Position numbers and translations under genes: made by a program | The notes under the pieces: model-generated | The model's input: the letters and a program-made list of their open reading frames with translations, nothing else | The model's database searches: none | What the model was told of the DNA's origin: nothing | Assembly: GCA_045803545.1 (NCBI GenBank) | Contig: JBJMOW010000001.1 | Coordinates: forward strand, 1 to 64,000 | Direction: 5' to 3' | DNA length: 64,000 nt | DNA from: Gemmatimonadaceae bacterium | GTDB lineage: Bacteria; Gemmatimonadota; Gemmatimonadetes; Gemmatimonadales; Gemmatimonadaceae | Shown: in pieces, positions 9,533 through 28,934 of the stretch | Position numbering within the stretch: the stretch's first letter is position 1 | How the letters are laid out: the number at the start of each line of letters is the position of its first letter

Positions 9533-12500
9533 TTGATCATCGAAAAACACAGACGATGTGGTATGCTCGCGCTCACGGCGTGCATTGCGTTCACCAGCTC
9601 GACGTGCCGCCAGGAGCACGCGTCTGTCGAAGAGCTGTACACAACGCGGATGCTCGGGCTCAGCTACTTGCAGCGAAATCAGCTGACCGAAGCAGAATCA
9701 TCGTTCAAGCAAATCACGAAGCTCGCCCCCGATGATCCACTCGGTTACGCGAACCTCGGCCTCACTTACCTCCAGGCAGGCCGATTCGATGACGCCGAGA
9801 AGCAGCTGAAAAAGGCCCGCGAACTGGACCCGAAGAACACCGAGATCGGACTCGCACTGGCCAAGGTCTACTCGCTGACAAAGCGACCGCAGGACGCGAG
9901 AGATCTCCTCGAGGCGATGCGAAAGGATTCGACCGCCAACCTGCACGTCGCCTATGCGCTCGCCGAGGTGGATGCACAGCAGCAGGACAGCGCGTCGGTG
10001 ACGCGCTACATGGATCGATTGAGAGATGTGCTGGCAGCGGCGCCGAGCAACCTGGCAGTGCGCACACAGTTGCTAAGAGCGCTCGCACAAACGGGCCAGG
10101 TCGACAGCGCGGTGCATCAGCTCGAGGAAATCCGCCGCATCCCGCCCGAGCTTCCCCGTGAAGCTCGGGTCTATCTGGATAGCACCATTCAGCTCTTACG
10201 CGCCGGCCAGGCAGCGAACGCGCGGGCGCTGTTGGATCGGTTTGTCCGCACGGTCGAAGTAACGTCGCCGTATCAGGCTTCGCTCGAAGACGTGAAATGG
10301 ACTGAAGGTCCAATCGCGGGCCGACCAGTACTGACCTTCGCGCCAAAGTATTTCGTGTCTCTCAATAAGGTTCGAGAAAAAGCAACCGTCGATCAGGCAA
10401 AGTTCGTTGATGCCACCGACGAATCCGGCCTGCGAAGCGGAGGCGGCCCTGCACAATCGGCGTTTGCTGTGGGTGACGTCGATGGAGATGGAATCGATGA
10501 CATTTTTGTCTCGAGTGTTTCAAACGGGCGCCCGGAGACACACCTCTATCGTGTTCAGGGCGGATTTGTCCGCGACGGCACCGATCGATCTGGAATTGCG
10601 CTCAGCGCCGGAGCCGCCTACGCAACGTTCGTCGATTACGACAACGATGGTTGGCTGGATCTATTTGTCATCGATGCGCGAGGCAAGGGCCTCCTTTTTC
10701 ACAATCGGGGCAACGGCTCGTTCGAGGATGTGACAGCGAAGGCCGGAGTTGGCCAAGTCAACGGTGCGCGCAAAGGAGTATTCGTCGATCTCGATCACGA
10801 CGGTGATCTCGATCTCCTGCTCGTTGGCGATAAGCTGACCGTGTATCGCAACAATCTTGACGGCACATTCACGGATGGCTCGGCGAGCTTTGACATTGCC
10901 GGAGTCTCTAATGCTTCCGACGCTGTTTTTGCGGATTTCGACGGCGATGGCAGAACAGACTTATTCGTGGCGAGCGCGGCCGGCGCTGGCAAACTTTTTC
11001 ACAATGCCGGTATTCAGCGTTTCACTGATGCGACGGGCCCTTCGGGATTAGCGCGAGCAGCTGCCGCGACGGTCGCCGCGGTGGGCGATTACAACAATGA
11101 TGGATATCTGGATCTCTTTTTGGGCGGCCACAATGTCGAGCCGTCACTCTGGCTCAACAAGGGCGATGGCACATTCACGCGCGACACGAGATCCGCGTCG
11201 ATATTGCGGGTGGCGCAGTCCGACGACGTCCAGGCAGCGACATTTGTCGATTTCGACAACGACGGTTGGCTCGACCTGGTGGTTGGCGCCAAGCCGGCCG
11301 CCGGGGAAAAAGGGCCGGCGCTGTTCGTGTTCCGCAACGATGGCAGCGGGCGGTATCTCGACCGATCGAATCTGCTCCCCGCGAGCGCACGCGAAGCGGG
11401 AGCAGTGGCGATATCGCCGTCCGACGTCGATGACGATGGCGATGTCGATCTTTGGCTGATTGATGGCGCGGGCGCCCCCCGTCTACTTCGAAACGATGGA
11501 GGTAACGCCAATCTCGCAGTGAACGTGGAGCTGAAAGCTTTGCGCACCGGCAGTGGAAAGAACAACGCACTCGGCATTGGATCTCGCCTGAACCTTCGCG
11601 CGGGCAATATCTACCAAACCCAGGTCGCCACCGGACGCGTCACACACTTCGGACTCGGTCCTCACCTCAAGGCAGATGTCTTACGGATCGAATGGCCGAA
11701 CGGTGTGCCACAGACGATCTACTTCCCCGGCAATGACCAGGACGTAGTGGAGCGTGAGATGCTCAAAGGATCGTGCGCGCTCGCCTACGCGTGGGATGGC
11801 AACGAATACCGCTTCGTCACCGACGCGATGTGGCGGAGCGCACTCGGTATGCCCCTCGGCCTGATGGGCGGTAACAGCGCCTTTGCGCCGGCGGGTGCAT
11901 CGCAGGAGTACGTGCGCATCTCCGGCGATGCACTCAAGCCGCGTGACGGCAAGTACTTTCTTCAGCTGACCGAGGAGCTCTGGGAGACGGCGTATGCTGA
12001 CGAAGTGAAGCTGGTCGCTGTAGATCACCCGGATTCAGTAGACGTCTTTGTAGATGAGCGGTTCGTGCCACCTGGACCGGTCACCCTCCATCTGTACGAG
12101 ATCTCGCAGCGGTATCCACCACTTTCGGCCACCGACGAGCGCGGCGATAACGTATTGCCTGCGCTTCTCAACGCCGACGACAACTACGTATCGAACTTCA
12201 ATCCGGAGAAGTATCAGGGCGCCGTGGCCAAACACGATTTGGTTCTCGATCTCGGCGCGACAGCAGGCCAGTCCGGTTCGTTCTTGTTCCTGCGCGGGTG
12301 GATCTACCCGACGGACGCCAGTATCAACGTCGCACTTTCTCAGCAGTCGTCGATTTCTCTCGCGCCCCCGTCGCTCGAAGTGCGTGATGCGAGAGGTGTC
12401 TGGAAGACAGTGATTCCCAGCATTGGATTCCCTTCCGGGAAAGACAAGACGATGGTGATCGACCTCGCCGGCAAGTTCCCCACTGCCGATCATCACGTTC

Positions 12501-13060
12501 GTCTGCGGACGAACATGCAGATCTATTGGGATCAAGCATTCGTTGGGCGGGCTCTCCCCCGTTCGGCGAGCCGCATCACCGAGCTCGAGCCAGCGTCGGC
12601 GGATCTGCATCTGCGTGGGTTCTCCAGGATGTACCGCAAAGGAGGACGCTACGGACCGTATTGGTTCGATTATTCGCAGGTGACCAAGGAGTCACCTTGG
12701 CGACCGATAGAAGGCTCGTTCACTCGTTTCGGAGATGTGCTTCCACTGCTACGCAAGGCCGACGACATGTACGTCATCATGGGTCCCGGTGATGAGGCCA
12801 CGCTCCAATTCGACGCCAGTTCAGCAACTCACCTGCCGGTCGGATGGAAGCGTGACTTTCTGCTTTACACCGACGGCTGGATCAAGGACTCGGATTTGAA
12901 TACCGCGTTCGGAACGACGGTCAACCCGCTGCCTTACCATAGCATCAAGTCGTACCCATACGCTGCAGGTGATGCGTATCCGACCGATTCGGTACATCAG
13001 CGCTACCAGCAAGAGTACAACACGCGAATGGTCGACAAGCGGTTGTCGACGGTGCGCTGA
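9533..13060 (+). CDS. TPR + FG-GAP repeat + ASPIC/UnbV domain protein with long C-terminal extension
   Basis: Signal-like N-terminus with Cys; TPR repeats (YANLGLTYLQAG); many D-x-D/N-x-D-G-x-x-D loops; HFGLG...IEWPNG ASPIC motif; GSCALAYAWDG-initiated C-terminal domain. Confidence 0.88.
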   Translation: MIIEKHRRCGMLALTACIAFTSSTCRQEHASVEELYTTRMLGLSYLQRNQLTEAESSFKQITKLAPDDPLGYANLGLTYLQAGRFDDAEKQLKKARELDPKNTEIGLALAKVYSLTKRPQDARDLLEAMRKDSTANLHVAYALAEVDAQQQDSASVTRYMDRLRDVLAAAPSNLAVRTQLLRALAQTGQVDSAVHQLEEIRRIPPELPREARVYLDSTIQLLRAGQAANARALLDRFVRTVEVTSPYQASLEDVKWTEGPIAGRPVLTFAPKYFVSLNKVREKATVDQAKFVDATDESGLRSGGGPAQSAFAVGDVDGDGIDDIFVSSVSNGRPETHLYRVQGGFVRDGTDRSGIALSAGAAYATFVDYDNDGWLDLFVIDARGKGLLFHNRGNGSFEDVTAKAGVGQVNGARKGVFVDLDHDGDLDLLLVGDKLTVYRNNLDGTFTDGSASFDIAGVSNASDAVFADFDGDGRTDLFVASAAGAGKLFHNAGIQRFTDATGPSGLARAAAATVAAVGDYNNDGYLDLFLGGHNVEPSLWLNKGDGTFTRDTRSASILRVAQSDDVQAATFVDFDNDGWLDLVVGAKPAAGEKGPALFVFRNDGSGRYLDRSNLLPASAREAGAVAISPSDVDDDGDVDLWLIDGAGAPRLLRNDGGNANLAVNVELKALRTGSGKNNALGIGSRLNLRAGNIYQTQVATGRVTHFGLGPHLKADVLRIEWPNGVPQTIYFPGNDQDVVEREMLKGSCALAYAWDGNEYRFVTDAMWRSALGMPLGLMGGNSAFAPAGASQEYVRISGDALKPRDGKYFLQLTEELWETAYADEVKLVAVDHPDSVDVFVDERFVPPGPVTLHLYEISQRYPPLSATDERGDNVLPALLNADDNYVSNFNPEKYQGAVAKHDLVLDLGATAGQSGSFLFLRGWIYPTDASINVALSQQSSISLAPPSLEVRDARGVWKTVIPSIGFPSGKDKTMVIDLAGKFPTADHHVRLRTNMQIYWDQAFVGRALPRSASRITELEPASADLHLRGFSRMYRKGGRYGPYWFDYSQVTKESPWRPIEGSFTRFGDVLPLLRKADDMYVIMGPGDEATLQFDASSATHLPVGWKRDFLLYTDGWIKDSDLNTAFGTTVNPLPYHSIKSYPYAAGDAYPTDSVHQRYQQEYNTRMVDKRLSTVR

Positions 13061-13077
13061 CCGCGCCTTATACTGTC

Positions 13078-14847
13078 GTGGTGACCCATCGTCCGAAGCC
13101 GGCGATACGCCGAGCTATCATCGCAATTCCCTTCCTCGCAGCGATTCTGTTGGCGATGAGATTGGATCGCGGTCCGATAAGATCCGCGACCGATGCTGGA
13201 CATCCAGGATTTGCATTGCGAGATGTTGCCGCGAACGCCGGCATCAGCTTCGTGCATCACCGACCTACCTTCGACGCGAAGATCGCCGGCATCGAGCCTC
13301 ATGTTGCCGCGCTCGGCGCGTCGGTCTCGGTCACCGACTTCGACGGCGACGGCCGTCCTGATCTCTACTTCACCAACAGCAAGTTCGGCGAACCCAACGG
13401 ACTTTATCGAAATCGTGGAGACGGCACCTTTGAGGAAGTCGCGTCGCGCGCCGGGGTTGCGGATCTGAATAGACCGGGCGAGGGCGTTTCGATGGGCGCG
13501 GTGTGGGGCGACTTCGACAACGATGGCCGAGAGGACTTGCTCGTCTACAGGTATGGCTATCTGGCGCTGTTCAAGAACCTCGACGGCACGCGCTTCGTCG
13601 ATGTCACGGAGCAAGCAGGCCTCCGCCGCTGGGTAAACAGCAACGGCGCGATCTGGATCGACTTCGATCGCGATGGACTGCTGGATCTGTATGTCACCGC
13701 CTATTTCCGCAGCGACATCGATCTCTGGCACCTCACTACCACCCGCATCATGCATAACAGCTTCGAGTTCGCCACCAACGGCGGCAAAAATCTGTTATTC
13801 CGCAACCTCGGCAACGGAAAATTCGAGGACGTCACCGACAAGATGGGGGTGGGGAGCACGCGCTGGACTCTCGCAGCTTCCTCGGCGGATTTCAACGGCG
13901 ACGGTTGGCCCGATATCTATCTCGCCAACGACTATGGACCGGAGGAACTGTACCTCAATGATCACGGCCACCGGTTCGTACTGACGACTGCAGGCCTGGA
14001 GAGCGAATCAAAGAGCGGAATGTCGGTAACTCTCGGGGACGCGTTCAACCGCGGGCGGATCGATGCATTCGTCACCAACATCTCTGAGCGCGGATATCTC
14101 TTTCAGAACAACAATCTGCGCGTCAACGAGATGGCAAGATCGAACGCGTTCCGGAATGTCGCCGAAGGCGCGGTGGCTGATGCGGGGTGGGCCTGGGGCG
14201 CACAGTTCGGGGATTTCAATAACGACGGCGCGAACGAGCTCTTCGTCGCTAACGGATTCATTTCTGCTGATCGCAACAAGAGCTACTGGTACGCAATGTC
14301 GAAGATCGCGGGGGCCAACAGCCGCTTGTTCGAAGATGCCGCCACGTGGCCTGCCTTCGGGAATGCGAGCCTTTCTGGATATGAGGCGTCGCGAGTCTAC
14401 CTCAATCGTGGAGTAGCTGGTTGGGTCGACGTCGCGAGCGAAGTGGGCGCGACTGATTTATATGACGGACGCGCCGTCGCGCTTGCCGATCTGTGGAATC
14501 GAGGCGAGGTAGACATCATCGTTGCAAACCAGAATCAACCAGCGGTCGTCTACCGTGATTCTCCCGACAGCAGCAACCACTGGATCGCATTCAAGTTGAT
14601 TGGAACGCGCAGCAACCGCAGCGCAATCGGAGCCGAGCTGTTGCTGGAGGCGGGAGACTTAACGCAGCGTCGAGTTGTCGACGGCGGTTCAGGCTTCGCC
14701 AGCCAGAATGATCGTCGCCTCCATTTCGGACTTGGCAAACACGAGTGGGTCGATCGGGTGGTAATCAACTGGCCGTCAGGACAACAACAGATTTTGCAAC
14801 GGCCGCCCATCGATCGCTTCAACACCATTGTCGAACCGCAACGGTAA
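13078..14847 (+). CDS. CRTAC1/UnbV-family protein (FG-GAP + ASPIC/UnbV)
   Basis: FG-GAP loops, DAGWAWGAQFGDFNNDG, NRSAIGA, GGSGFASQNDRRLHFGLG, INWPSG. Confidence 0.9.
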   Translation: MVTHRPKPAIRRAIIAIPFLAAILLAMRLDRGPIRSATDAGHPGFALRDVAANAGISFVHHRPTFDAKIAGIEPHVAALGASVSVTDFDGDGRPDLYFTNSKFGEPNGLYRNRGDGTFEEVASRAGVADLNRPGEGVSMGAVWGDFDNDGREDLLVYRYGYLALFKNLDGTRFVDVTEQAGLRRWVNSNGAIWIDFDRDGLLDLYVTAYFRSDIDLWHLTTTRIMHNSFEFATNGGKNLLFRNLGNGKFEDVTDKMGVGSTRWTLAASSADFNGDGWPDIYLANDYGPEELYLNDHGHRFVLTTAGLESESKSGMSVTLGDAFNRGRIDAFVTNISERGYLFQNNNLRVNEMARSNAFRNVAEGAVADAGWAWGAQFGDFNNDGANELFVANGFISADRNKSYWYAMSKIAGANSRLFEDAATWPAFGNASLSGYEASRVYLNRGVAGWVDVASEVGATDLYDGRAVALADLWNRGEVDIIVANQNQPAVVYRDSPDSSNHWIAFKLIGTRSNRSAIGAELLLEAGDLTQRRVVDGGSGFASQNDRRLHFGLGKHEWVDRVVINWPSGQQQILQRPPIDRFNTIVEPQR

Positions 14848-14851
14848 CTCG

Positions 14852-15754
14852 ATGAGCGAAGCAACCGCCAGCGTCGCATCGCAGAACGCGGTGGTCCGCA
14901 CCTGGCAGCGCGCGTCGAAGATCGATCCGCGGTATTTGATCGCGTTTCTCATCACGCTCGTACTCGTCGTGGGCCAACTGCGCTACCACCTGCTCGGCGG
15001 CTATGACCGGCTCGTCATTGCCCTCGGTGTGTGCATGGCGACAGAAGCGCTGCTGTCATGGTTCGATCGAGGAAAGGTCGTCAATCTGCTCAGCGCCTAC
15101 ATCAGCGGCATCAGCCTCACGCTTTTGATCAAGCCGCAGGGCGGCGCATTGTGGCCGTTCGTAATCGGTGGTTTCATCGCCATCGCATCGAAGTACGTCC
15201 TTCGCTACCGCGAGAGCCATCTCTGGAATCCCACCAATTTCGCGATCGCCGCACTGCTGTTGGCGGCGCCTGATCGCATTTCAGTCTTGAGTCATCAGTT
15301 CGGCAACGACGTCACAACCAATCTGGTGATATGGATTTTCGGCTTGATCATCGCCGCGCGCGTTGGGGTGCTGCACATCACGTTGACCTATGTGATCAGC
15401 TTCCTGCTGCTGAATACCGCCAGAGCGACGCTGCTTGGGCAACCCGTAGTTCCCGAGATCGCCCCAATCACCGGGCCGATGTACCAGCTATTCGTGTTCT
15501 TCATGATCACCGACCCACGCACGGTCGTGCGAGGGCGCAGGAAACAAATCGTCGTGGCCGTTCTGATCGCTGTTGCAGAAACGGTGATACGATTTGCGGC
15601 TGACGAGGGATGGTCACTGCCAATTGGAGTAACTGCCGCGCCTGCGTTTTATGCGCTGGCCACCATCGGCCCAATCGCAAAGTGGCTCGATCTGCGGCGC
15701 GCGAAAAAAGCAACAACGACGGAAGCCTTCACCGCCGCGCGAAGCCAGTTATAG
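14852..15754 (+). CDS. UnbU-like / RnfD-NqrB-family integral membrane protein
   Basis: SAYISG, SKYVLR, HLWNPTNF, FFMITDPRT motifs; ~9 TM segments; directly after the UnbV homolog. Confidence 0.8.
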   Translation: MSEATASVASQNAVVRTWQRASKIDPRYLIAFLITLVLVVGQLRYHLLGGYDRLVIALGVCMATEALLSWFDRGKVVNLLSAYISGISLTLLIKPQGGALWPFVIGGFIAIASKYVLRYRESHLWNPTNFAIAALLLAAPDRISVLSHQFGNDVTTNLVIWIFGLIIAARVGVLHITLTYVISFLLLNTARATLLGQPVVPEIAPITGPMYQLFVFFMITDPRTVVRGRRKQIVVAVLIAVAETVIRFAADEGWSLPIGVTAAPAFYALATIGPIAKWLDLRRAKKATTTEAFTAARSQL

Positions 15755-15787: not shown

Positions 15788-16384
15788 TCAGGCTGCAGCG
15801 GCGATGGACGGGCGATGGTGCGCGCAGGTGCACATCATCTTCACGGCGTCCCGTGCCGGCGGATACACGTGATAGTACATGGCGATCACCATCGGAATGA
15901 AGACGATGGTGTTGTAGAACAAGTGGAGCTCGATGCGCGGAAACCAGATCTGGCCGACGCTCGTTGGTACGTTGCCGCCGAACCAGTAGTGATGGGTGTT
16001 CGCCTGGTAGAACAGGATGAAGTGCTCGAAATGGTGCCAGAACTGGATCCAGAACGACGCCATCCACCACTTGTGCGATGTGCCGACGAATCCTTTGCGG
16101 AGGATCCAAAGGCCGACGAGCATCACCAGGGCGAAGCCGTAGTGTAGCGTTTCAGTCTTCATCAACCACGGATAGTACATACCGAGCAAACCCATCGACA
16201 TCTGGCGCGACCAGTGGAGGCCGTAGAACTGGTAAGCCTGGATGATGTGCTCGGCCCAATGGAGCAGCACGATGACCATTAACCCCTGCAACGCGAGCTT
16301 GTGGTAGCGAGTGTTCAGACTCTCGACAAACCCGGACGATAGGGCGCTTGAAAGTGGATGGATGTCGGGTGTCGTTGCGGTCAT
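15788..16384 (-). CDS. His-rich integral membrane hypothetical protein
   Basis: About 4 TM helices with HWAEH, ETLHYG, WHHFEH, IELHLFYN; C-terminal CTCAHH; start just after the halogenase stop. Confidence 0.8.
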   Translation of the reverse strand: MTATTPDIHPLSSALSSGFVESLNTRYHKLALQGLMVIVLLHWAEHIIQAYQFYGLHWSRQMSMGLLGMYYPWLMKTETLHYGFALVMLVGLWILRKGFVGTSHKWWMASFWIQFWHHFEHFILFYQANTHHYWFGGNVPTSVGQIWFPRIELHLFYNTIVFIPMVIAMYYHVYPPARDAVKMMCTCAHHRPSIAAAA

Positions 16385-16394
16385 GCGCCAGACT

Positions 16395-18059
16395 CTAAAG
16401 TTGGGTTTTCGGTGCGCCAACTATGCGGTCAGGGGTGGCGGTCGTCAAGCTGAAAATCGCCTCGGCTAAGGGCGAACCCCGAAGCGCCGGCAAGGCCGCC
16501 AGCAGCTCATGACGCGACATCCCGAGCAGCGTGTGCGCATCGAGCAACGCATCGAAATCAACCGGATAGAGATTTTGGTATTTCGGATCTCCAAGTCCAG
16601 CCACGTTGCGTGGCTTGATCGACCGATGGACCCATTCAACAAATCCACGGCGGGCATCCTGTGCCCCCATTGGCTTCCCTTGCGCAAGAATGTGCTCGAG
16701 CCGTCGCAGCGATTCCCGGGGCAACGGCTCGAGCACCGGATCGCCAACACCCAGGAAGCCGCGCCACGCGATCGAGTCATCAGGCTGTAATCGCTGACTC
16801 GCTTCGGCGAAGGATACAGCTGCGAAGTAAAGCATCGCCTGCGCGCTGAAAAGATCGAAACTCGCCATCGCCCGATAAGCGCCGGCAACCAGCAGGTCGA
16901 TCTGATCGCCTTCGGCCAAAAGCGCAGCCGAGTACCGATCGCGGGTTGATGGCGAAGGAACGCGCGAGCCAGATGCGACTGCCTCGAACATCAGTGCGAT
17001 ACGTTCGACGACGCGCAAGCTCCAGGATATTCCTGTCGAGAACAATGGATCGACGAAGGCAAATGCGTGCGGCATCAACAGCCATCGGTCTCCGGAGGAT
17101 TGCGCGAGACGATGCTGAATGAGCGGCCGAAACGCGATTGGCATCGAGGGTTTCGCATCAGAGAACAGGTCACCGATGGTTGGATAGCGGGCAAGCAACG
17201 TCTGCCAAAACGCTTCACCGCTTACGGACGTGCCACTCGGCAAGGAGCCCACGATCTGCGGATTGAGCAGGAATCCAGCGCTAGTTGTGCCGTGATCAAA
17301 CCGGAGGGAGTACATCCAGCCTTCGTCGATCACGTGATGGACTGCGGCCCAATCTTCAGGATATGGTCCCACAGGCAAACCAGGCACAGAGTCCTGCATC
17401 AGGCTTACGCCATCGAAATGGCTGAACACGAGCGCGGCACGAGTGTGAGTACGCGCCAGATCGGAAGCCAGCGAGAGCTGGCGGGCGAGAAAACCGCCGG
17501 GTCCCGAAGCGTCGATGACAAACGAAACGTCGAACTGCACGACTTCACCGAGCCGCGTTCCACCAAGCGTCGCATGGTTACGGGAGAACGAAGCAGAGTT
17601 TAGATCGACGTGGTCGAAGTAATCGACGCCTGCGGCAACAGCTTGATCGACAAAATGTTGATCGACGTCAGCGCGAAACCAATGTGAATCGGCGATGGCG
17701 TCGCCGGGACTGGCAGCGACCAGCAGTCGCTCCGAATCAGGCCCGCGATCCTCGAAGCGTTGGCCGGGATGATGGCGGTAGAAGGTGAAGCCGCGTTTCA
17801 AGCCGCGGCGCAGCTGCGGGAATCGCTTAACCCAGCGCCCATGTGCTGCCAGCGCATAACAGTCTTCGAGACCGTAGCGCAGACCGATTCTCTCCAGAGA
17901 AAGGTTGGCTAGGGGCGTGGATGATTCTCCGATTGCAAAACGTGGATGCATCCCACGCTCGAGAAGGACGACGTCGTAGCCAATGCTGGTAAGAATTCGC
18001 GCCAGCAGAGAGCCGGCAAAGCCGCTGCCGACAATGGCTATTTCATACCTGGACTTCAC
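16395..18059 (-). CDS. flavin-dependent halogenase-like FAD oxidoreductase (Trp-halogenase superfamily)
   Basis: GSGFAG Rossmann motif, HPRFAIGES, GLKRGF, IDASG, GWMYSL, AFVDPLFSTG; GTG start overlaps the radical SAM stop (GTGA). Confidence 0.82.
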   Translation of the reverse strand: MKSRYEIAIVGSGFAGSLLARILTSIGYDVVLLERGMHPRFAIGESSTPLANLSLERIGLRYGLEDCYALAAHGRWVKRFPQLRRGLKRGFTFYRHHPGQRFEDRGPDSERLLVAASPGDAIADSHWFRADVDQHFVDQAVAAGVDYFDHVDLNSASFSRNHATLGGTRLGEVVQFDVSFVIDASGPGGFLARQLSLASDLARTHTRAALVFSHFDGVSLMQDSVPGLPVGPYPEDWAAVHHVIDEGWMYSLRFDHGTTSAGFLLNPQIVGSLPSGTSVSGEAFWQTLLARYPTIGDLFSDAKPSMPIAFRPLIQHRLAQSSGDRWLLMPHAFAFVDPLFSTGISWSLRVVERIALMFEAVASGSRVPSPSTRDRYSAALLAEGDQIDLLVAGAYRAMASFDLFSAQAMLYFAAVSFAEASQRLQPDDSIAWRGFLGVGDPVLEPLPRESLRRLEHILAQGKPMGAQDARRGFVEWVHRSIKPRNVAGLGDPKYQNLYPVDFDALLDAHTLLGMSRHELLAALPALRGSPLAEAIFSLTTATPDRIVGAPKTQL

Positions 18060-19003
18060 AATTGACCGCACGCCTGACAAGGCGGACCGGACTCCAGCAC
18101 CCCACTGAGATTTGCGGCGCGCAGTCGCTTGACGCGGGCTACTCTGCACTCATCACAAGCGTCCAGCTGCGCAATGTCCCACAGGTCCGCTGTGACGACG
18201 GTTTTGGATTGGCTGATCGTCGCTTTCATCGCTTCTTCAAGCTGACGCAATGTCGGTGGCGTGAAGAATCCAAGCTGCTGCAGGCGCTCGAGCTCTCCGT
18301 TTCCTGGGCGCACCGGGATAATGGAGACCATTGAAGCGCCCGCCGACGCAGCGTACTCCACTGTGCGCACAGTCCACTCAACGCTCTCCGATGTCGGAAC
18401 GTACGGCATACCGAGCAGCACGAACACGCGCACGTCTATTTCATGCGCGTTGAGAAGCGTTACTGCGTGATCGAACCTAGCCAAATCCAATCGCTTGTTA
18501 CTTTCGGCCAGCGCAACCGGGTGAATCGACTCCAATCCAAGTGCGACCTCCAAACGGCCAGGGATCGAATCAGCGAAATCTGTGGCGCGTTGACCAATCG
18601 TCGCGGCATGCGATTCAACGGTGATCGCCTCAATTCCGCTGAGCAGGCTGGCGATGCCTGCTACGTCAGCGGGCGGCACAGCCCGCGGATCGAAGAAGTT
18701 GCTGGCGTTGTAAAGCTTCACGCGATTCGGCATCGGTCCTTCGCGCGAAGCGAGCACTTGCTCCAGCTGCGCCGTCAGCGCGCCGCTGGGGGTCGGACCG
18801 TCGATGGTCCACTGCCACAAATCGCAGAATGAACAGGCGAACGGACATTCTGCGCCGACAAGAAAGACGGTGAGTGACTGCTCGATCCTTCCGTCAGGGC
18901 GTCGCTCTTTCTCCAACAGCGTCCCGTGCGCACGGTGAGGATCGACGCGCGCCTTGGGCGGACGAAGGCTCCTGATACGGTTATCAGCCGTCTCCAGATT
19001 CAC
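18056..19003 (-). CDS. radical SAM protein, archaeosine RaSEA-like
   Basis: CPFACSFC (CxxxCxxC), KLYNASNFFD, TVESH, LEVALGLES, C-terminal CDEC and CQAC; family assignment from motif recall. Confidence 0.8.
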   Translation of the reverse strand: MNLETADNRIRSLRPPKARVDPHRAHGTLLEKERRPDGRIEQSLTVFLVGAECPFACSFCDLWQWTIDGPTPSGALTAQLEQVLASREGPMPNRVKLYNASNFFDPRAVPPADVAGIASLLSGIEAITVESHAATIGQRATDFADSIPGRLEVALGLESIHPVALAESNKRLDLARFDHAVTLLNAHEIDVRVFVLLGMPYVPTSESVEWTVRTVEYAASAGASMVSIIPVRPGNGELERLQQLGFFTPPTLRQLEEAMKATISQSKTVVTADLWDIAQLDACDECRVARVKRLRAANLSGVLESGPPCQACGQL

Positions 19004-20334
19004 GCTACGACGGCGTGGAGCCCCTGAAAATGACGCCGGTAACGGGTCTCGTTCTCCGGAAAGAATCGCGAGATCTTGTCCGCCGCTACGGAGCCGTGTT
19101 GGAAGCGACGCTTCTCGTACACCGGCATATCAATACCGAGTACTGCTCGAATGCCGCGCTTCACCACTTCTCCCTTGAGCGCATACAGGCGCTCGTGCGA
19201 TCCCTGTGTCAGCTCGGCGAAAGGAATTGCCTCGGCGACTGCAATCACGGCCGGCCTCGTGTAGGGGCTGAAATCAGTGAAGCCGAATTCACGAGCGCAC
19301 GCATAGCCACGTACGCAGCCGCGGCTGTAGCCACCGGAGTAAGTGAGCGAGTGCTTGATCGACTCGACTCCCCAGCCTTCCTGATAGAGCATCCGGTTGT
19401 TGACGACACTGCGGATGGTGAGCTCGCTGTTAGCCTCGATCGGGTAGTCTTTCAGATTCTCGTCACCGCCATCTCCGTCGACGAGCAGCTTCCAGTCGGG
19501 ATAGCGCTCCCTGATGCACGCGAGAAGAGCGAGATTCACGGCAGCGCAGTCGACATCTAACGGCTTGTAGTCTTCGATGACTGCGATCGCTCGCAAGGGA
19601 TCGAGCGCGGTGGACGGGACCTCCACCACTTCGCCCAGCATCTCGAGATCGGTTCGACGAAGAAACTCACGGGCCTGCGTGGCATCGTCTCCCTCGCCGT
19701 CGATCGAAAGAGTGAATGCCTTGAGGCGCGCCGGGGACTGTCCCTCATCCAACATCGCTCTGTAGAGACAGAGCAGGACCGACCCGCTATCGATCCCACC
19801 GGAGAACGGGACACCGATTGGAGCCGACCTGTCCTGAACCTGGAGCCAGCGGCGAATCTCGGAGTAAAGCGCTTCGATGTAGCGCTTGCCAATGACGTCG
19901 AGATCGGCGGGGAGAATTCCGCGCGGGGGATCGAAGAAGCGGCGATAGACGGGATTTGGATCTGGGCAGCCGACTAACCGCAACGTAGTGATATGGTGAG
20001 CGGGGACCATTCGCGTATAAGAAGGATGAAACTGATCTCCCCACCCCCGACGGGCGAGCTCCGCAGCAATTTCGTCGATTCGTTCCGCAACAATTAGCGC
20101 CGGCCCTTCTACTGCCTTCGCCAGAAAGTAACGCAGGGGTCGATCGAGACTGCGAGCCAGGAGAACACGCTCGCCGTCCTGAACCACTAAAGCGAAGGAG
20201 CCATCGATCTCAAGAACGCCATCGGCATCACTAGCGAGCAACCGGCGCCTCGCCTCAGATTCGTCGATCGTCCAGAATCGCTGTGATCTCTCAGATATCA
20301 GGTTGATGACGCGAGATAAATGTTGTTGGGTCAT
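19000..20334 (-). CDS. asparagine-synthetase-like ATP pyrophosphatase (amide ligase) lacking the glutaminase Cys
   Basis: PP-loop FSGGIDS, GDGGDENL, degenerate Ntn-like N-terminus (DGSFALV) without N-terminal Cys; AGGGAG upstream of ATG 20334; GTGA overlap with next gene. Confidence 0.85.
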   Translation of the reverse strand: MTQQHLSRVINLISERSQRFWTIDESEARRRLLASDADGVLEIDGSFALVVQDGERVLLARSLDRPLRYFLAKAVEGPALIVAERIDEIAAELARRGWGDQFHPSYTRMVPAHHITTLRLVGCPDPNPVYRRFFDPPRGILPADLDVIGKRYIEALYSEIRRWLQVQDRSAPIGVPFSGGIDSGSVLLCLYRAMLDEGQSPARLKAFTLSIDGEGDDATQAREFLRRTDLEMLGEVVEVPSTALDPLRAIAVIEDYKPLDVDCAAVNLALLACIRERYPDWKLLVDGDGGDENLKDYPIEANSELTIRSVVNNRMLYQEGWGVESIKHSLTYSGGYSRGCVRGYACAREFGFTDFSPYTRPAVIAVAEAIPFAELTQGSHERLYALKGEVVKRGIRAVLGIDMPVYEKRRFQHGSVAADKISRFFPENETRYRRHFQGLHAVVA

Positions 20335-23300
20335 GCCAAAAAATACTCCCTGGTCATGTCTGCTGCATCTTCGCAGGCAGCTCTTGTTTCCTGCTACCCT
20401 GCTGCTGATCGCCGGGTGTTCTCGCTCATCGGAGCCCACTGTCTTCAGGCTGCTAACGCCGAGCGAAACAGGCATCGACTTCGCGAACACCATTACCGCG
20501 ACTGATTCGTTCAACGTTCAAACCGACGTCTACATCTACAATGGCGCCGGGGTCGCCGTCGGAGACATCGACAACGACGGGCTGCCCGACATTTTCTTCA
20601 GCGGCAACATGGTTTCGAGCCGGCTGTACCTGAACAAAGGCTCGATGAAGTTCGCGGACATCACCAAATCGGCCGGCGTTGCGACGACGCGCTGGGCGAC
20701 CGGCGCCAGCATGGTCGATATCAACGGCGATGGCCTGCTCGACATCTACGTGTCGGTCTCCGGTCCTGAGCGCTTGAGAGCAGCGGACAGGGCGAACCTT
20801 CTCTTCGTCAACAACGGCAATCACACTTTTACCGAGGAGGCCGCCAGATACGGCATCGCAGACACAGGATTCACAACGCATGCGGCATTTCTGGACTACG
20901 ATCGTGACGGGTGTCTCGACCTTTTCGTACTGAACAACTCTCCGAGGGATTTCACGCGCGGGGTAGCGAGCCACCCCACCGCAGTCCGCGATTCGACGCC
21001 GGGAAGCGTGAATCAGCTCTATCACAACGATTGTCCTGAGGGGAAGCCGGGACATTTCACGAATGTCTCAGCGGATGCCGGGATTCTTCACGACGCAGGG
21101 TACGGACTAGGCGTGGCCATTGGCGACGTTAATGGAGATGGCTGGCCGGACATCTATGTATCGAACGACGGAATGCCCAACGATGTCCTCTATCTGAACA
21201 ATCGCAACGGCACATTCACCAATATCGCGGCGAAATCATTTAGGCACACGAGTCAGGCCGGAATGGGCGTTGACATCGCCGATTTCAACAACGATGGGCG
21301 CGAAGACATTCTGCAGGTGGATATGTTGCCGGGCGATCTGCCGCGCCGAAAGAGAACGAACGGAACCACAACGATGAGCAGCGCTACTGACGCGTTGCGC
21401 CGGGGGTACCGGATTGATTACTCGCAAAACGCTTTACAGCTGAACAACGGCACAACGACGGATGGGCTGCCCGTGTTCAGCGAGATTAGCCGCATGGCCG
21501 GCGTATCCGGCACCGACTGGAGTTGGAGCGCCTTGTTCGCCGATTTCGACAACGATGGATACAAGGACATCTTCATCGGCAACGGCTACCCCAAAGCGGT
21601 CAACGACCTCGACTACATGGCCCCGGCGTACAGTGCAATGCGGAGCGGAAATAACGCGCTCGCACGACGGATGATCAGAGAACTTCCAGAGTACGCATTT
21701 CCGAATTACGTCTTTCGTAACAACGGGGATCTCACGTTTACAAATAAGACCAAGCTCTGGGGAATGGATCAGCCGAGCCTCTCCTATGGTGCTGCGTACG
21801 CCGATCTTAACAACGACGGCAAACTCGATTTAGTCGTCAACAACATCAACGGACCAGCATTCGTCTACGAGAACGTGCTACCAACGAGCGACGCGGACCA
21901 CTACCTCGAACTCGGATTGAAGGGCGATTCCCCGAGACTGCTCACCGCCGGCATTGGAGCACAGGTCATCGTGACGACGGCGGGTAGAAAACAATATCTC
22001 TACAGCTCGCCATACCGCGGCTTCATGTCGTCGATGGACAGTCGACTTCACATCGGACTCGGCAAGGCCACTCGCGTCGATACGCTCGAAGTCGATTGGC
22101 CCGATGGGCGGCGACAGCTTCTAACCAATGTTCCCGCGGACCGACTGCTGGTAGTGAGGCAGGCCGGTGTGAAGCCCGCCGAAATTCCTCCAGCTGTCAA
22201 AAATCCAGCTGCCGTGGCCAAGTGGTTTGAAGAAGTTCGGCTGCCTGGTCTCGCCTACACACAACCCGCGGCGTTTCGATCTGACTTTACGATTCAGCCA
22301 TTGCTTCCCTACATGATCTCCGCCCATGGGCCGGCCCTCGCCGCCGGAGACGTAAATGGCGATGGCCTGGACGACATTTACATCGGCGGTAGTCCGGGCG
22401 TCGCCGGGAGACTGTTCATCCAGCAAAAGAACGGCGGCTTCATTGAGTCGGCGCAAGGCCAGCCATGGGAAGCCGACAAAGCGTTTGACGATTGGTGCGC
22501 GGTCTTCTTCGACGCGAACGGAGATGGTAAACCCGACCTTTACGTGGCGAGTGGCAACTACAGCCAGGCTAATGGCTCACCATTACTGCAGGATCGCCTT
22601 TACATCAATCAAGGCGGTGGCCGGTTTGTTCGGAGTTCCAACGCGCTCCCGCCAATGTTAACGAGCAAAGGAGTCGTGCGCGTCGGCGATTACAATGGCG
22701 ACGGGCGTCCGGATTTGTTTGTGGGTGGCCGGTTGACGCCGCGCAAGTATCCGTATCCGACGCGCAGCTACATCCTTCGCAATGACGGTGGCGGCCGATT
22801 CACCGACGTCACGGAGCAGCTCGCGCCGATGCTGTTGAATCCCGGCGGCATGATCACTGACGCCGCCTGGGTCGATTTCGATGGAGACGGGCGGCTGGAC
22901 CTGGTGACAGTCGGCGAGTGGATGCCGATTCAGTTCATGAAGAACGAAGTCAATCGCTTTTCAGATGTCACTTCGTCGACCGGTCTCTCTTCCGATCGGG
23001 GGTGGTGGTTCAGCATCGCCACCGGCGATTTCGACGGCGACGGCCGTCCTGACATCGTCGCCGGCAATCTCGGTTTGAACTACACGTACGGGACATCGAA
23101 GGATACAACTTTTGAAGTCTACGCAAACAGCTTCACCGGCAATCAGACGACAGACGTCGTGCTCGCAGACAGAATCAATGGCACTTCGTACTCTCTCGCC
23201 GGCATGTCACCGCTCGGACGCGACGTTTACACAACGGGAATAAGATTCCCAACCTTTGGCTCATACGCCGTGGCAACCCTGAATCAGCTGTTCGGTCAAG

Positions 23301-23710
23301 AACAGTTAAAACAGTCGCTGCATTATGAGGTTGATACGTTTGCCAGCGTATTCCTGCACAACGATGGTGGTGGAAAGTTCACCATGACGAAGCTGCCGAG
23401 CGCGGCGCAGATCTCACCGATCAAAGGCATTGTCGCGCGCGACATCGACGGCGATGGTCACCTCGATCTCGTGGTCGCCGGCAACTTGTACGAGACGGAG
23501 CCGAATACTCCGCGAGCTGACGCAAGCAACGGCCTGTGGCTGAGAGGTGACGGCAAAGGCCGCTTCTTAGCGATTTCCTCTGTCGAGAGCGGCTTTCTGG
23601 CGCCTCGCGATGCATGGGGGCTGTCGCTGCTGGGAACCCCTGAGGGTGAAATGATTGTCGTGCCGAACGTGGCGGATTCTCTACAGATCTTCCGACTTCG
23701 CAGACGCTGA
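20333..23710 (+). CDS. FG-GAP/VCBS repeat + ASPIC/UnbV lipoprotein
   Basis: Lipobox LIAGC; YNGAGVAVGDIDNDG; TDWSWSALFADFDNDG; RGFMSS...LHIGLG...VDWPDG; second FG-GAP propeller; start uncertain. Confidence 0.88.
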   Translation: MPKNTPWSCLLHLRRQLLFPATLLLIAGCSRSSEPTVFRLLTPSETGIDFANTITATDSFNVQTDVYIYNGAGVAVGDIDNDGLPDIFFSGNMVSSRLYLNKGSMKFADITKSAGVATTRWATGASMVDINGDGLLDIYVSVSGPERLRAADRANLLFVNNGNHTFTEEAARYGIADTGFTTHAAFLDYDRDGCLDLFVLNNSPRDFTRGVASHPTAVRDSTPGSVNQLYHNDCPEGKPGHFTNVSADAGILHDAGYGLGVAIGDVNGDGWPDIYVSNDGMPNDVLYLNNRNGTFTNIAAKSFRHTSQAGMGVDIADFNNDGREDILQVDMLPGDLPRRKRTNGTTTMSSATDALRRGYRIDYSQNALQLNNGTTTDGLPVFSEISRMAGVSGTDWSWSALFADFDNDGYKDIFIGNGYPKAVNDLDYMAPAYSAMRSGNNALARRMIRELPEYAFPNYVFRNNGDLTFTNKTKLWGMDQPSLSYGAAYADLNNDGKLDLVVNNINGPAFVYENVLPTSDADHYLELGLKGDSPRLLTAGIGAQVIVTTAGRKQYLYSSPYRGFMSSMDSRLHIGLGKATRVDTLEVDWPDGRRQLLTNVPADRLLVVRQAGVKPAEIPPAVKNPAAVAKWFEEVRLPGLAYTQPAAFRSDFTIQPLLPYMISAHGPALAAGDVNGDGLDDIYIGGSPGVAGRLFIQQKNGGFIESAQGQPWEADKAFDDWCAVFFDANGDGKPDLYVASGNYSQANGSPLLQDRLYINQGGGRFVRSSNALPPMLTSKGVVRVGDYNGDGRPDLFVGGRLTPRKYPYPTRSYILRNDGGGRFTDVTEQLAPMLLNPGGMITDAAWVDFDGDGRLDLVTVGEWMPIQFMKNEVNRFSDVTSSTGLSSDRGWWFSIATGDFDGDGRPDIVAGNLGLNYTYGTSKDTTFEVYANSFTGNQTTDVVLADRINGTSYSLAGMSPLGRDVYTTGIRFPTFGSYAVATLNQLFGQEQLKQSLHYEVDTFASVFLHNDGGGKFTMTKLPSAAQISPIKGIVARDIDGDGHLDLVVAGNLYETEPNTPRADASNGLWLRGDGKGRFLAISSVESGFLAPRDAWGLSLLGTPEGEMIVVPNVADSLQIFRLRRR

Positions 23711-23774: not shown

Positions 23775-25604
23775 TTACCAGCCCGGATTCTGCTTCAGCG
23801 TCAACTCCCCGCCTTGCTTACTGATGTCAATCTGATCCTGCGGAATCGCGTAGAAGCGGTGACGATCTGCGAAAGCTTCCGCGGATGTCTTGTATGTGCG
23901 CCGCGTGTCTTCGCGACCACCGTTGCTTCCCCAGGGGGCCGCTCCGGTGCCGGTCAGATATCCATTGATGACGGCCTTCGCGTACGTCATTCCGTACCGA
24001 CGGAGGTCGAATAGCCGCTGACCTTCCATCGCCAGCTCGAGACGACGCTCCATGCGTACAGCTTCACGAGCGTAGTTCGCATCCGGGAATGCCGGATACA
24101 GGCCAATCCGGTACGTCGCCCACGTAATTCTTGTGTCAGTCGGCGAAATAGCCATATCGGCGCGATTAGTTCCGGGACCCTGCGCAGTGACTCCCGCGCG
24201 TGTCCTGATCTGGTTCACGATAGCCAGTGCGCCAGGAAGATTGCCGGTTTCCACATCGGCTTCCGCCAGCATTAAGAGCAAATCGGCGTAGCGATAGAGG
24301 TGGATGTTGATCGAGCTTTGCTGCTGCGGCTGCCAACCAACCGTAGCCTCCTGCCCACTGCCTTTTTCGTGAATGATCTTCTTGGGCATGTAGGGTCCGC
24401 CGTTCGCCTGATCGCGAACCCAGGTAATGCTGTACTTGCCCCAATCCTTGAACGGAACGCCGTCGCGACCAACTGTCCAATCCAGGCGCGGATCGACAGG
24501 CTGCATATCACCTGCGACAAACGCGCTGCTTTGACTGTTCCATGTCGTCGGTGATGTCAGCGCCAGGGGAAGTCCGGTGGCGGCGTCTGTCTTGAAGAAG
24601 TTCACAAGGTTGATCGCGGGCGGATCGAAGCCGCAGCACTGGAAGTGGCTCGGCGCATATGGGAAGTTCAAACGCTCGCCGAAGTTCGAGTTTGCAGCAT
24701 TTGGCTCGCCATCCTGCGACGACGCCTGGTATGCGAAGATTGTTTCCGGACCGTTCTGAGCATCCGAATACGCCGACCAGACGCGATCAAAGCTTGTCTC
24801 AAGGCCATACACACCGCTCGCTACAACCTCCTCAAACACGGTGCGAGCGGCGGCGTACTGATGGTCGTACATCAAGACGCGCCCCTTGTATGCCTTTGCC
24901 GTCCAGACCGTCGCCCGTCCCTTCTGACCGTTACGCGGGGTAGTCGGGAGCAGCGCGATCGCCGCGTCGAGATCCTTCAGGATATCGGTGACGACTACGG
25001 TCGAATCTTCGTTTGCTTTGCGGAAGTCCGTATCATCTTCACGATAGTACGGAATGTTCCCCCACATCCGATAAGCTTCGAAGTGGTAATGGGCCCGCAG
25101 GAAGATCGCTTCGCCCTCGATTCCCTTTTGATCTACGAGTGCAATTTCATTCGGGCTCGCAGCGACAACCTGCTTCAGCAACCGAATCGTTGAATTCGCG
25201 CGAACGACGCCTTCGTACACCTGCTGCCATTTGACGCTGAGGTACTCTGCAGCCGAGCCAGAGCCCCAGTGATAGCCTTCGATATCATTGATGGGCGGCT
25301 GATCGAGTCCGTCCGATCCCTTATACGAGTCGTCGCTAGCGACGCTACCGAAGACCCAGTTACTGGCCGCACATCCCCAGTTACCGCTTGTCGCATCTGT
25401 ACAATCCAGAGTGCGATAGGCGGCAACCAAGCTTCCCTCTACGCCTGACTTGGTAGCCAGCGTAGCGGCGATGACGCTTCCCTGCGGCTCGGCCGCATTC
25501 TGCAGGAAGTCCTTGCATCCGTACAGCGCGGCTGACGCAAGGATCACTAACGCCGAACTACGGAGCAGTGAGTTTTTTGAAGTGAATTCCATTGTTTGCT
25601 TCAT
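23775..25604 (-). CDS. SusD/RagB family outer-membrane lipoprotein
   Basis: Lipobox LYGC, GEAIFLRAHYHF, DPRL, YRYADLLLMLAEA, ERRLELAMEGQRLFDLRR, C-terminal QNPGW. Confidence 0.93.
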   Translation of the reverse strand: MKQTMEFTSKNSLLRSSALVILASAALYGCKDFLQNAAEPQGSVIAATLATKSGVEGSLVAAYRTLDCTDATSGNWGCAASNWVFGSVASDDSYKGSDGLDQPPINDIEGYHWGSGSAAEYLSVKWQQVYEGVVRANSTIRLLKQVVAASPNEIALVDQKGIEGEAIFLRAHYHFEAYRMWGNIPYYREDDTDFRKANEDSTVVVTDILKDLDAAIALLPTTPRNGQKGRATVWTAKAYKGRVLMYDHQYAAARTVFEEVVASGVYGLETSFDRVWSAYSDAQNGPETIFAYQASSQDGEPNAANSNFGERLNFPYAPSHFQCCGFDPPAINLVNFFKTDAATGLPLALTSPTTWNSQSSAFVAGDMQPVDPRLDWTVGRDGVPFKDWGKYSITWVRDQANGGPYMPKKIIHEKGSGQEATVGWQPQQQSSINIHLYRYADLLLMLAEADVETGNLPGALAIVNQIRTRAGVTAQGPGTNRADMAISPTDTRITWATYRIGLYPAFPDANYAREAVRMERRLELAMEGQRLFDLRRYGMTYAKAVINGYLTGTGAAPWGSNGGREDTRRTYKTSAEAFADRHRFYAIPQDQIDISKQGGELTLKQNPGW

Positions 25605-25620
25605 CCTTGTGTGAGCTGCG

Positions 25621-28600: not shown

Positions 28601-28911
28601 CGTCCAGCGACTGTCGTTTGGACAGGGCGCTGTCCGACGAGTGAGAAGGTTAGCACAGCGTCCGAAGGCGCTGTGATGCGATACTTTCCGCTGGCGTCGG
28701 TGATCGTGCGGGCATCCGTGCCCTGCACGCGTACCGTCACGCCTGGCAGCGGAGTGCCGCCTGTTGATGTCACGGTTCCGGTGACCGCGACGTTTTGCGC
28801 GAATGCAGTTCCGCTGATTACGAGCGCCAGAACAAAGCTCAGCGCCGCTGCGCAGATGGAGCGCCAGCGTCCGTTTCGGACTGCATCACTTCCATACGAC
28901 TTCCTTTCCAT
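25621..28911 (-). CDS. SusC/RagA family TonB-dependent receptor
   Basis: N-terminal CarboxypepD_reg-like domain, LEEVVVTAY, IRGISS, PLYIVDG, VLKDASAASIYGSRAGNGV, NPDLKWE, terminal Phe. Confidence 0.95.
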   Translation of the reverse strand: MERKSYGSDAVRNGRWRSICAAALSFVLALVISGTAFAQNVAVTGTVTSTGGTPLPGVTVRVQGTDARTITDASGKYRITAPSDAVLTFSLVGQRPVQTTVAGRGTVDVTMAQVPYLEEVVVTAYTEQRRGDITGAVSSVNVESATKQTQASVLKAMDATVPGVTVTTSGAPGARNTVRIRGISSFQNNDPLYIVDGMAVSDSYLDFLNPNDITSIQVLKDASAASIYGSRAGNGVVLIETTKKGITGAPQTTLRFRTGVQTPVRGLDDMLMTNSLDYFQVIKAGYDNAGKPVTPALQAIWGDPNNPSIPLYTYASPDLVLARDAFGRPTQVDLTGYAYPNTLIEPGSAGTNWWKAVWGSAPVNDYNLDVRGGSDANAYTVSGNYFDQKGTAAYTDYRRGSLRANTSFNRSKFNFGENVALTLARQYGGTGTFDDTNGEGGVLGKDILTQPIVSVYDVAGNFAGGRGVPGINNTNPLQVAFAQKDNVNKFNTAFGNAFASYDILPALVFKTNLGFDLRQNNWTGFNDITPQNNEANFTNSIFEGDYNKYNWSWSNTARYLKSLGRSSFDLLAGQEASHGTFRQIDAGMSSLLNSGLDSRYLQDALGNPTTKFVNSFGGKNALLSLFGKIGYNFGDKYVASYTLRRDGSSNLAPGHRWGTFPAFGLGWHITNEPFLSGNRFLSDVMLRYGWGVTGNQNIPSGRIVSTYGGDRGDTFYDITGSNQSIAPGVRQAAQGNPDLKWEENRSSNIGADMVLLNGMFNVVVDVYNRKTNNLLFDPRTPATAGVASPPIVNIGKMENKGFDFSVGHTASWWNIAFNGSHYKNKIVSIDGIQDHFFGPNPLREGQAVINQVGQPIGSFYGLVADGYFRDQADATAHLAAGNCGVGTGLTGTPCQDGAAPGRIKFKDVNGDGVVDNLDRTVIGSPHPKFTMGIDLGAHRGSWDASATIFGTYGNKIFDNQKDFYVFRDFQTNVLKDRLSASWSPTNQNAKYPILDINDTYSGVPSSYYVEDGSYTRLRNVQIGYTLPGAARYLPGARVYLQGDNLWTHTNYPGLDPAIPPGNQTGAAGDIRDQFMGVDRGSYPTNKVFSFGISTSF

Positions 28912-28934
28912 GGTCTTCCTCCCAGTTGCTGCTA

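Follow-up and report, generated by a model that had tools for sequence, protein, structure and literature searches.

A Conserved Bacterial Three-Gene Unit for a Glutaminase-Less Amide Ligase, a RaSEA-Like Radical SAM Enzyme, and a Halogenase-Like Flavoprotein

What do a ligase that lacks its glutaminase nucleophile and a radical S-adenosylmethionine (SAM) enzyme make together? The question is raised by contig JBJMOW010000001.1 of a Gemmatimonadaceae bacterium (assembly GCA_045803545.1), of which positions 1 to 64,000, called here the window, were analyzed. The original prediction made from these letters had proposed that an asparagine synthetase-like enzyme attaches lysine or another amine to a carboxylate, and that a radical SAM enzyme resembling RaSEA of archaeosine synthesis then cleaves the amine, leaving its nitrogen on a substrate other than tRNA. 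We found that the two genes, together with a third gene encoding a flavoprotein, form a three-gene unit that is co-inherited. It is rather probable that the enzymes act successively on one small molecule. Ligation followed by radical N-dealkylation is the single reading that we rate highest, and we hold it tentatively.

The three enzyme families are individually known, but we found no described pathway that combines them. A literature search, which did not extend to supplementary files, found no paper on a bacterial unit of ligase, radical SAM enzyme, and flavoprotein. One paper on ammosamide (PMC12715798) contains the same three terms and was set aside, because its pathway is unrelated.

RESULTS AND DISCUSSION

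Organization of the three genes

The interval of the original prediction, 18056–20334, is filled exactly by two minus-strand open reading frames (ORFs), the ligase gene at 19000–20334 (444 aa) and the radical SAM gene at 18056–19003 (315 aa). The ligase stop codon and the GTG start codon of the radical SAM gene overlap as GTGA, which bears out the translational coupling claimed for the pair. A GTGA overlap also joins the radical SAM gene to a third coupled gene that was absent from the earlier account. This gene (16395–18059, minus strand) encodes a homolog of the flavin-dependent halogenases of the PltM/CtcP type, 554 aa long when counted from the GTG at 18059.

Two of the start sites differ from those of the mechanically listed ORFs. 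The listed ligase ORF of 504 aa begins at an upstream TTG; the start was placed at the ATG at 20334, from whose residue 1 the relatives align, and most of the best 120 homolog clusters are 444–445 aa long. The mechanical ORF for the flavoprotein extends to 18149, and relatives align only from about its residue 20–36. The names carried by close homologs also point to a member of the Gemmatimonadaceae.

On the other side of the ligase gene, its ATG (minus strand, 20334–20332) overlaps by two bases the ATG of a divergent lipoprotein gene (plus strand, 20333–20335; MPKNTPWSCLL...LLIAGC). Because there is no intergenic region between these two genes, each promoter must sit within the other gene.

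A cluster for a peptide made by the ribosome and modified after translation (RiPP), with the ligase as a lasso-cyclase-like AsnB homolog, was considered and rejected, since the overlapping genes and the abutting divergent lipoprotein gene leave no room for a precursor gene in the window. Pfam and NCBIfam scans found no domain of a RiPP peptide-recognition or protease partner, and no extra gene is conserved across phyla.

Distribution and linkage of the unit

The distribution of the unit within the phylum was determined in a sample of 151 Gemmatimonadota genomes, in which absence was called at E ≤1e-20. The same 14 genomes hold the ligase, radical SAM, and flavoprotein genes, adjacent to one another, and the remaining 137 hold none of the three. 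The linkage on which the original prediction depended is found in each of these 14 genomes, and it includes the third gene.

A pattern scan of species genomes gave at least 588 relatives among the 600 matched stretches listed; locus counts given here refer to the best 80 of these relatives. The 80 loci come from 'Candidatus Multivorans' and from the major soil phyla Gemmatimonadota, Acidobacteriota (Thermoanaerobaculia and Vicinamibacterales), Planctomycetota, Verrucomicrobiota, and Bacteroidota. The unit is a common one. Of the 68 loci with at least 1400 bases of upstream sequence, 64 have the ligase gene immediately upstream of the radical SAM gene, and the flavoprotein gene lies directly downstream in 59 of the 61 loci with at least 1700 bases of downstream sequence. 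The order of the three genes was identical in all nine longer loci from relatives. Among the exceptions, the ligase gene is 4.4 kb upstream in locus L080, and in loci L092, L097, and L106 it is located on a different contig of the same genome; the ligase was found in all five genomes scanned. A 275-aa ORF between the two genes in a Bacteroidales locus (L081) was rejected as a member of the unit, being an unrelated lipoprotein-like insert.

The flavoprotein gene is the less constant partner. No flavoprotein homolog was found at E ≤1e-10 in two Bacteroidota genomes that hold the pair, and in a Verrucomicrobiales genome the flavoprotein gene is unlinked to the pair. We conclude that the ligase–radical SAM pair is the core of the unit and that the flavoprotein is a frequent third member. 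The radical SAM family comprises 1246 representative clusters at E ≤0.001 (291 at E ≤1e-30); because of this number, and because gene order is kept across phyla, the pairing is more than chance.

The other neighbors vary by phylum. In Thermoanaerobaculia they are housekeeping genes, which by eye we take to be those for thymidylate kinase (tmk) and DNA polymerase III delta' (holB), and no further gene conserved beside the module across phyla was found. Because the neighbors differ among phyla, the module appears to be self-contained. The sequencing runs listed as holding the sequence were all of soil-metagenome DNA, with no RNA run among them.

The ligase

The ligase matches the Pfam family Asn_synthase (PF00733) with 38.1 bits, compared with a cut-off of 21. 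The two sequence features on which its assignment had been based, the PP-loop FSGGIDSG (invariant in the family) and DGDGGDENL, were both found. The protein begins MTQQHL, and the catalytic Cys2 of the glutaminase is present in none of 17 aligned members from several phyla, so its absence, claimed earlier for this one protein, holds for the relatives as well. With the model for glutamine-hydrolysing asparagine synthase (TIGR01536), the ligase scored 32 bits vs. a cut-off of 267. In the 17 sequences the mean column identity of the ligase is 74%; the mean column identities within the alignments of the radical SAM and flavoprotein families are 43 and 49%. Two stretches, DQFHPSYTRMVPAHH...GCPDPNP and DENLKDYPIE...NNRMLYQEGWGV..IKHSLTYSGG, are largely invariant across phyla.

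The AlphaFold2 model of the ligase has a mean predicted local distance difference test score (pLDDT) of 73.8. Its best Foldseek match is beta-lactam synthetase (1mc1_A; E 9.8e-12, TMq 0.54, 460 columns), and further matches covering both domains are human ASNS, Escherichia coli AsnB, the carbapenam synthetase CarA, and TsnB9. As modeled, the window protein has the same two-domain AsnB fold as beta-lactam synthetase and CarA, in which the N-terminal domain is dead and the PP-loop is intact; these enzymes are the top matches, with E values of 1e-11 to 7e-9 over about 450 aligned columns. It differs from them in sequence, with identities of 12–19%, and in context, with no clavulanate or carbapenem pathway genes nearby. 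The family profile reached only asparagine synthetases in the PDB, and these weakly (E 5e-4). PDB searches with a single ligase or radical SAM sequence gave nothing useful, and profiles were needed; look-ups in the ESM Atlas returned only the query proteins' own families.

These matches bear on a different chemistry, in which the ligase would adenylate a carboxylate and cyclize the molecule through an amine that it carries itself, as beta-lactam and carbapenam synthetases do. The radical SAM enzyme would then make or unmask that amine, N-dealkylation coming first, or carry out unrelated radical chemistry, and the flavoenzyme would halogenate the product. Beta-lactam synthetase chains (1mc1_A) are the top structural matches, with CarA among them; both enzymes, like the window ligase, lack the Cys nucleophile; and the module has no conserved neighbor that would supply an amine separately. 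However, the identity to beta-lactam synthetase is only 17–19%, human ASNS and AsnB score about equally well, and the only proteins reached by the sequence profile are the asparagine synthetases mentioned above. In addition, if the amine were unmasked first, the gene order, ligase followed by radical SAM gene, would be opposite to the order of the reactions. The loops that matter for ring closure are modeled at a pLDDT below 50. We consider formation of a lactam unlikely.

The radical SAM enzyme

The motifs reported for the radical SAM protein are all present: KLYNASNFFD, ESH, LEVALGLES, and extra C-terminal Cys (CDEC...CQAC). The protein also has CPFACSFC (CxxxCxxC). Across 27 diverse members of the family, no variation occurs at C53, C57, or C60 or in KLYN..FFD, ExH, or LEVA.G.E, and the C-terminal CxxC...CxxC is nearly invariant.

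The original prediction had likened this protein to RaSEA. The resemblance is real: among NCBIfam families, the RaSEA model TIGR01210 gives the window protein its best match (E 6.2e-16), and all 27 diverse members match it as well (best E 2.1e-33). Membership in RaSEA itself did not stand: the window protein scores 58.5 bits, and because this is far under the cut-off of 212.15, it falls outside the RaSEA equivalog. The second most frequent family is MnmL/YtqA (TIGR01212), matched by 18 of the 27 members (17 bits). The best PDB match of the family profile is queuine lyase (6p78; E 2.7e-8, profile positions 30–180). Judged from these matches, the protein is best described as a relative of RaSEA and queuine lyase in a separate bacterial family, and no ortholog of RaSEA.

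The rest of the genome agrees with this placement. TIGR01210 finds this one gene only, and no MnmL ortholog was found. As the original prediction expected, there is no arcTGT, defined here as nothing above the cut-off of TIGR00432: this model matches a single 405-aa ORF, with 69.7 and 49.6 bits vs. a cut-off of 350, and no separate model was used for ArcS. Without an arcTGT above the cut-off in the genome, the pair does not serve archaeosine synthesis.

Three relatives have been characterized. RaSEA makes archaeosine from preQ0-Lys and operates as a complex with ArcS, which transfers the lysine (PMC11298593), YhcC/MnmL converts cmnm5s2U to nm5s2U (bioRxiv 10.64898/2026.05.18.725915), and queuine lyase converts queuine to preQ1 (PMC7694415). 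All three cleave a C–N bond, and the nitrogen stays on the substrate.

In its mode of action the unit comes closest to the ArcS–RaSEA pair of Euryarchaeota. Both combine an enzyme that attaches a nitrogen group with a small radical SAM enzyme, and CxxxCxxC is common to them. The partner in the window, however, is an ATP-dependent ligase of AsnB fold, whereas ArcS is TGT-like and no ATP-dependent ligase. The unit is also bacterial, includes a third, halogenase-type enzyme, and shows no sign of a tRNA substrate; membership in the archaeal system thus fails on score, partner, and genome context. Queuine lyase, itself a radical SAM enzyme, and MnmL/YhcC (TIGR01212) are comparable in that C–N cleavage leaves a primary amine. 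Neither has a coupled ligase; each works by itself, on queuine or tRNA, and the matches to them are weak and partial.

The low scores also allow a plainer account, in which the ligase would use free NH3 to form an amide and the radical SAM enzyme would catalyze some other step on that small molecule, so that no amine would relay the nitrogen. The missing glutaminase nucleophile, taken alone, fits the use of ammonia, and with scores far under both the RaSEA and the MnmL cut-offs the radical SAM reaction may differ from theirs. What this account leaves unexplained is why a glutaminase-less ligase and an enzyme of N-dealkylase type are so strictly co-inherited, even where the halogenase is absent. 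We rate it below lactam formation, as quite unlikely.

The flavoprotein

The profile of the flavoprotein family matches tetracycline 7-halogenase (7v0b) with an E value of 2.9e-72 over positions 5–523 of 531 and PltM (6bzt) with 2.8e-71; CmlS and PltA are among the more distant matches. The motif GSGFAGS (GxGxxG) and FVDPLFSTG are present. All of 13 sequences have the Lys of GLKRGF (K88), whose counterpart in the CtcP alignment is the Lys of GQKSNF. WxWxIP is a motif of flavin-dependent halogenases. At its position CtcP has GWMWIIPF, and the sequence is degenerate in the window protein (GWMYSLRF) and in the family (GWMYxL(R/P)F). Because of this degeneracy, the flavoenzyme may be halogenating or hydroxylating, and either is possible. 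The likeness to PltM and CtcP thus lies in the full-length profile match (E ~1e-72), GxGxxG, the aligned Lys, and FVDPLFSTG; the differences are the degenerate WxWxIP and the neighborhood, since neither polyketide genes nor a flavin reductase were seen among its annotated genes. PltM and CtcP act on free small molecules. The window flavoprotein alone matches QhpG with 60 bits, vs. 247 bits for small-molecule halogenases with the family profile.

Proposed pathway

Our best explanation is a self-contained cytoplasmic module of three enzymes whose target would be one small molecule instead of tRNA. In the first step, the AsnB-fold enzyme would adenylate a carboxylate of the substrate and make an amide. 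An amine co-substrate, for example an amino acid, would supply the nitrogen; this source is proposed because the glutaminase nucleophile is absent. In the second step, the radical SAM enzyme would abstract a hydrogen next to the nitrogen and cleave the C–N bond (N-dealkylation), so that the nitrogen is kept as a primary amide. N-dealkylation is proposed because it is the reaction of all three characterized relatives (RaSEA, queuine lyase, and MnmL/YhcC). The third step, halogenation or hydroxylation of an electron-rich ring on that molecule by the PltM/CtcP-type flavoenzyme, would be dispensable, since some lineages lack the flavoprotein gene. Gene structure, family assignments, linkage, and co-occurrence are what the analysis shows; the chemical steps, their order, the amine donor, and the substrate are all things that we infer. 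Ligation and subsequent trimming was rated above the other readings because a glutaminase-less ligase and a radical SAM enzyme of N-dealkylase type form the invariant, translationally coupled core. The median isoelectric points (pI) of the three module proteins are 5.7, 5.8, and 6.4, all acidic, which argues weakly against a nucleic-acid substrate. If the scheme is correct, radical N-dealkylation of the RaSEA, queuine lyase, and MnmL type would extend from nucleobases to the synthesis of small-molecule amides.

Several points weigh against this explanation. The score of the radical SAM protein is far from the RaSEA cut-off (58.5 vs. 212.15 bits), and the TIGR01210 alignment spans only model positions 5–251 of 313, with the Cys-rich C-terminus outside it. 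Glutaminase-less enzymes of AsnB fold can use an intramolecular amine, as beta-lactam synthetase and CarA do, and they could also use free ammonia. Since ArcS needs no ATP to add lysine to a nitrile, it is a loose analog of an adenylating ligase. Residues 104–136 and 290–337, the most conserved segments of the ligase, are modeled at a pLDDT below 50, and for this reason the active site is not readable in the model; according to the model, these segments may fold only on a partner or substrate. Finally, the explanation does not account for the close link of the module to an exported lipoprotein of Sec type, described below. A complex prediction for the ligase and the radical SAM enzyme gave a score of 0.01, which says nothing for or against their pairing.

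The giant lipoprotein and its association with the unit

A plus-strand operon (9533–15754) that is convergent with the unit contains genes for a giant lipoprotein, a CRTAC1-like protein, and an RnfD-like protein. Pfam matches divide the giant lipoprotein (9533–13060; 1175 aa), an exported protein, into TPR, an FG-GAP propeller, and ASPIC/UnbV, followed by an unnamed C-terminal beta-sandwich region. Its presence in other genomes was scored by searching with the C-terminal 436 aa. In the Gemmatimonadota sample this region was found in 27 of the 151 genomes. Of the 14 genomes with the module, 13 had it, the one without a match being G104; of the 137 others, 14 had it. In other phyla, all 10 module genomes had it, one match being a fragment of 150 residues. 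Among 121 genomes of Chitinophagaceae, the same four hold the radical SAM gene and the C-terminal domain, and 117 hold neither. The giant lipoprotein occurs without the module, but the module almost never occurs without the giant lipoprotein. No statistic is given for this co-occurrence, because related genomes are not independent; the pattern repeats in two phyla.

The association is physical in some genomes. The giant-lipoprotein gene lies within 17 of the 80 loci, a homolog adjoins the pair in a Chitinophagaceae locus, and in a Planctomyces locus (L122) a homolog is located head-to-head with an unlinked ligase gene (32% identity over ~600 aa, E 6e-73). The product or substrate of the module would accordingly be tied functionally to this protein in our scheme. 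Co-inheritance gives the giant FG-GAP/ASPIC lipoproteins, a large and functionally blank family, their first enzymatic partner.

In 13 N-terminal regions of relatives, the window protein not counted, signal peptides are of lipoprotein type wherever the start is reached. Export by the twin-arginine translocation (Tat) pathway, which would allow loading of a cofactor in the cytoplasm, was considered and rejected, as the twin-arginine motif is not conserved in the relatives that reach the start.

The C-terminal 436 aa (11750–13057) have no credible Pfam family in any of 18 members. The region is kept from Gemmatimonadota to Planctomycetota and Bacteroidota with 50% mean column identity, and its model is all-beta with a pLDDT of 83.3. 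Foldseek found no clear match for it in the PDB. VIA-align pointed to a CBM32/35-like beta-sandwich at residues ~97–271 with a middling Z of 8–10; for 7d2a_A, as an example, Z was 9.0 with a root mean square deviation of 3.2 over 117 aligned residues, and a best Z of 7–8 is common for this tool.

The link to an exported protein raises the possibility of a salvage or catabolic route. The lipoprotein, helped in some phyla by SusC/SusD, would capture an external compound for import; the radical SAM enzyme would remove an N-substituent in the manner of queuine lyase, and the ligase and flavoenzyme would convert the released molecule. This would make sense of the genome-wide and physical association of the giant lipoprotein, of the SusC/SusD genes beside the module in Gemmatimonadota, and of the CBM32/35-like sandwich, and queuine lyase, the best PDB match of the radical SAM family, is itself a salvage enzyme. 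However, biosynthesis, and not catabolism, is the typical setting of ATP-dependent amide ligases and halogenases, the CBM-like match is middling, and in other phyla SusC/SusD genes are not near the module. Salvage seems to us about as improbable as the use of free ammonia.

A macromolecule could also be the target, either a nucleobase such as a 7-deazaguanine derivative, of the kind handled by RaSEA and queuine lyase, or a protein or peptide undergoing maturation, possibly the giant lipoprotein itself. Modified nucleobases are the targets of every characterized relative of the radical SAM enzyme, QueC is present in the genome (212 bits), and the flavoprotein weakly matches QhpG, GoxB, and LodB, which oxidize peptidyl Trp. 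The unusual conservation of the ligase (74%) and the strict co-occurrence with one protein family fit the same idea. Against it, all three proteins are acidic, and Pfam and NCBIfam scans detected no RNA-binding, peptide-recognition, or SPASM domains. Nor does the window operon leave space for a gene that would encode a precursor peptide. Maturation in the cytoplasm is made unlikely by the Sec-type lipoprotein signals and the lack of a conserved twin-arginine motif, and the giant lipoprotein is found without the module in 14 of 137 genomes. The flavoprotein, moreover, fits the small-molecule halogenases far better than QhpG (247 vs. 60 bits, as above). We rate modification of a macromolecule lowest among the alternatives.

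Returning to ligation and N-dealkylation, a more specific version can be formulated, in which the unit would carry out nitrogen transfer in bacteria on a substrate other than tRNA by way of a sacrificial amine, and the often halogenated product would be a ligand or cofactor of the giant lipoprotein. An amino acid would be put on a carboxylate, and the radical SAM enzyme would oxidatively strip its carbon skeleton to give a primary amide. Such a reaction would be an oxygen-independent counterpart to peptidylglycine amidation. With all its parts combined, this version is improbable, on a level with salvage.

Neighboring genes

The CRTAC1-like FG-GAP/ASPIC protein (13078–14847, plus strand) was assigned by Pfam, and the stand-alone RnfD/NqrB-like membrane protein (14828–15754, plus strand) by PF03116 with 40.8 bits. 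The RnfD-like gene overlaps the end of the CRTAC1-like gene by 20 bases. In the Gemmatimonadota sample the RnfD-like protein is found in 19 genomes, 12 of the 14 with the module and 7 of the 137 others; the giant lipoprotein accompanies it in 6 of these 7, and in 17 of the 19 overall. Neither the CRTAC1-like nor the RnfD-like gene was seen near the module in Acidobacteriota loci, and they recur in Gemmatimonadota only.

The end of the flavoprotein gene is overlapped by a gene for a His- and Trp-rich membrane protein of 210 aa (15788–16420, minus strand). It was rejected as a member of the unit, being present in 8 of the 151 phylum genomes, 3 of which lack the module. The protein has no Pfam or NCBIfam match, and a second copy, 80% identical, is located elsewhere in the same genome (G000:C2:872573–873142).

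Beyond the ligase gene, the divergent gene at 20333–23710 (plus strand) encodes a second FG-GAP/ASPIC lipoprotein of 1125 aa, identified by Pfam and by the lipobox LLIAGC read from the sequence. SusD/SusC genes come after this gene, which recurs as a neighbor in many Gemmatimonadota loci. In the window, Pfam assigns to 23775–29819 (minus strand) a SusD-like gene, a SusC-like gene (TonB-dependent, with a CarboxypepD_reg domain), and a YdjC-like gene. The set is an uptake locus of Bacteroidota style in a genome of Gemmatimonadota, and it is conserved next to the module in many loci of this phylum.

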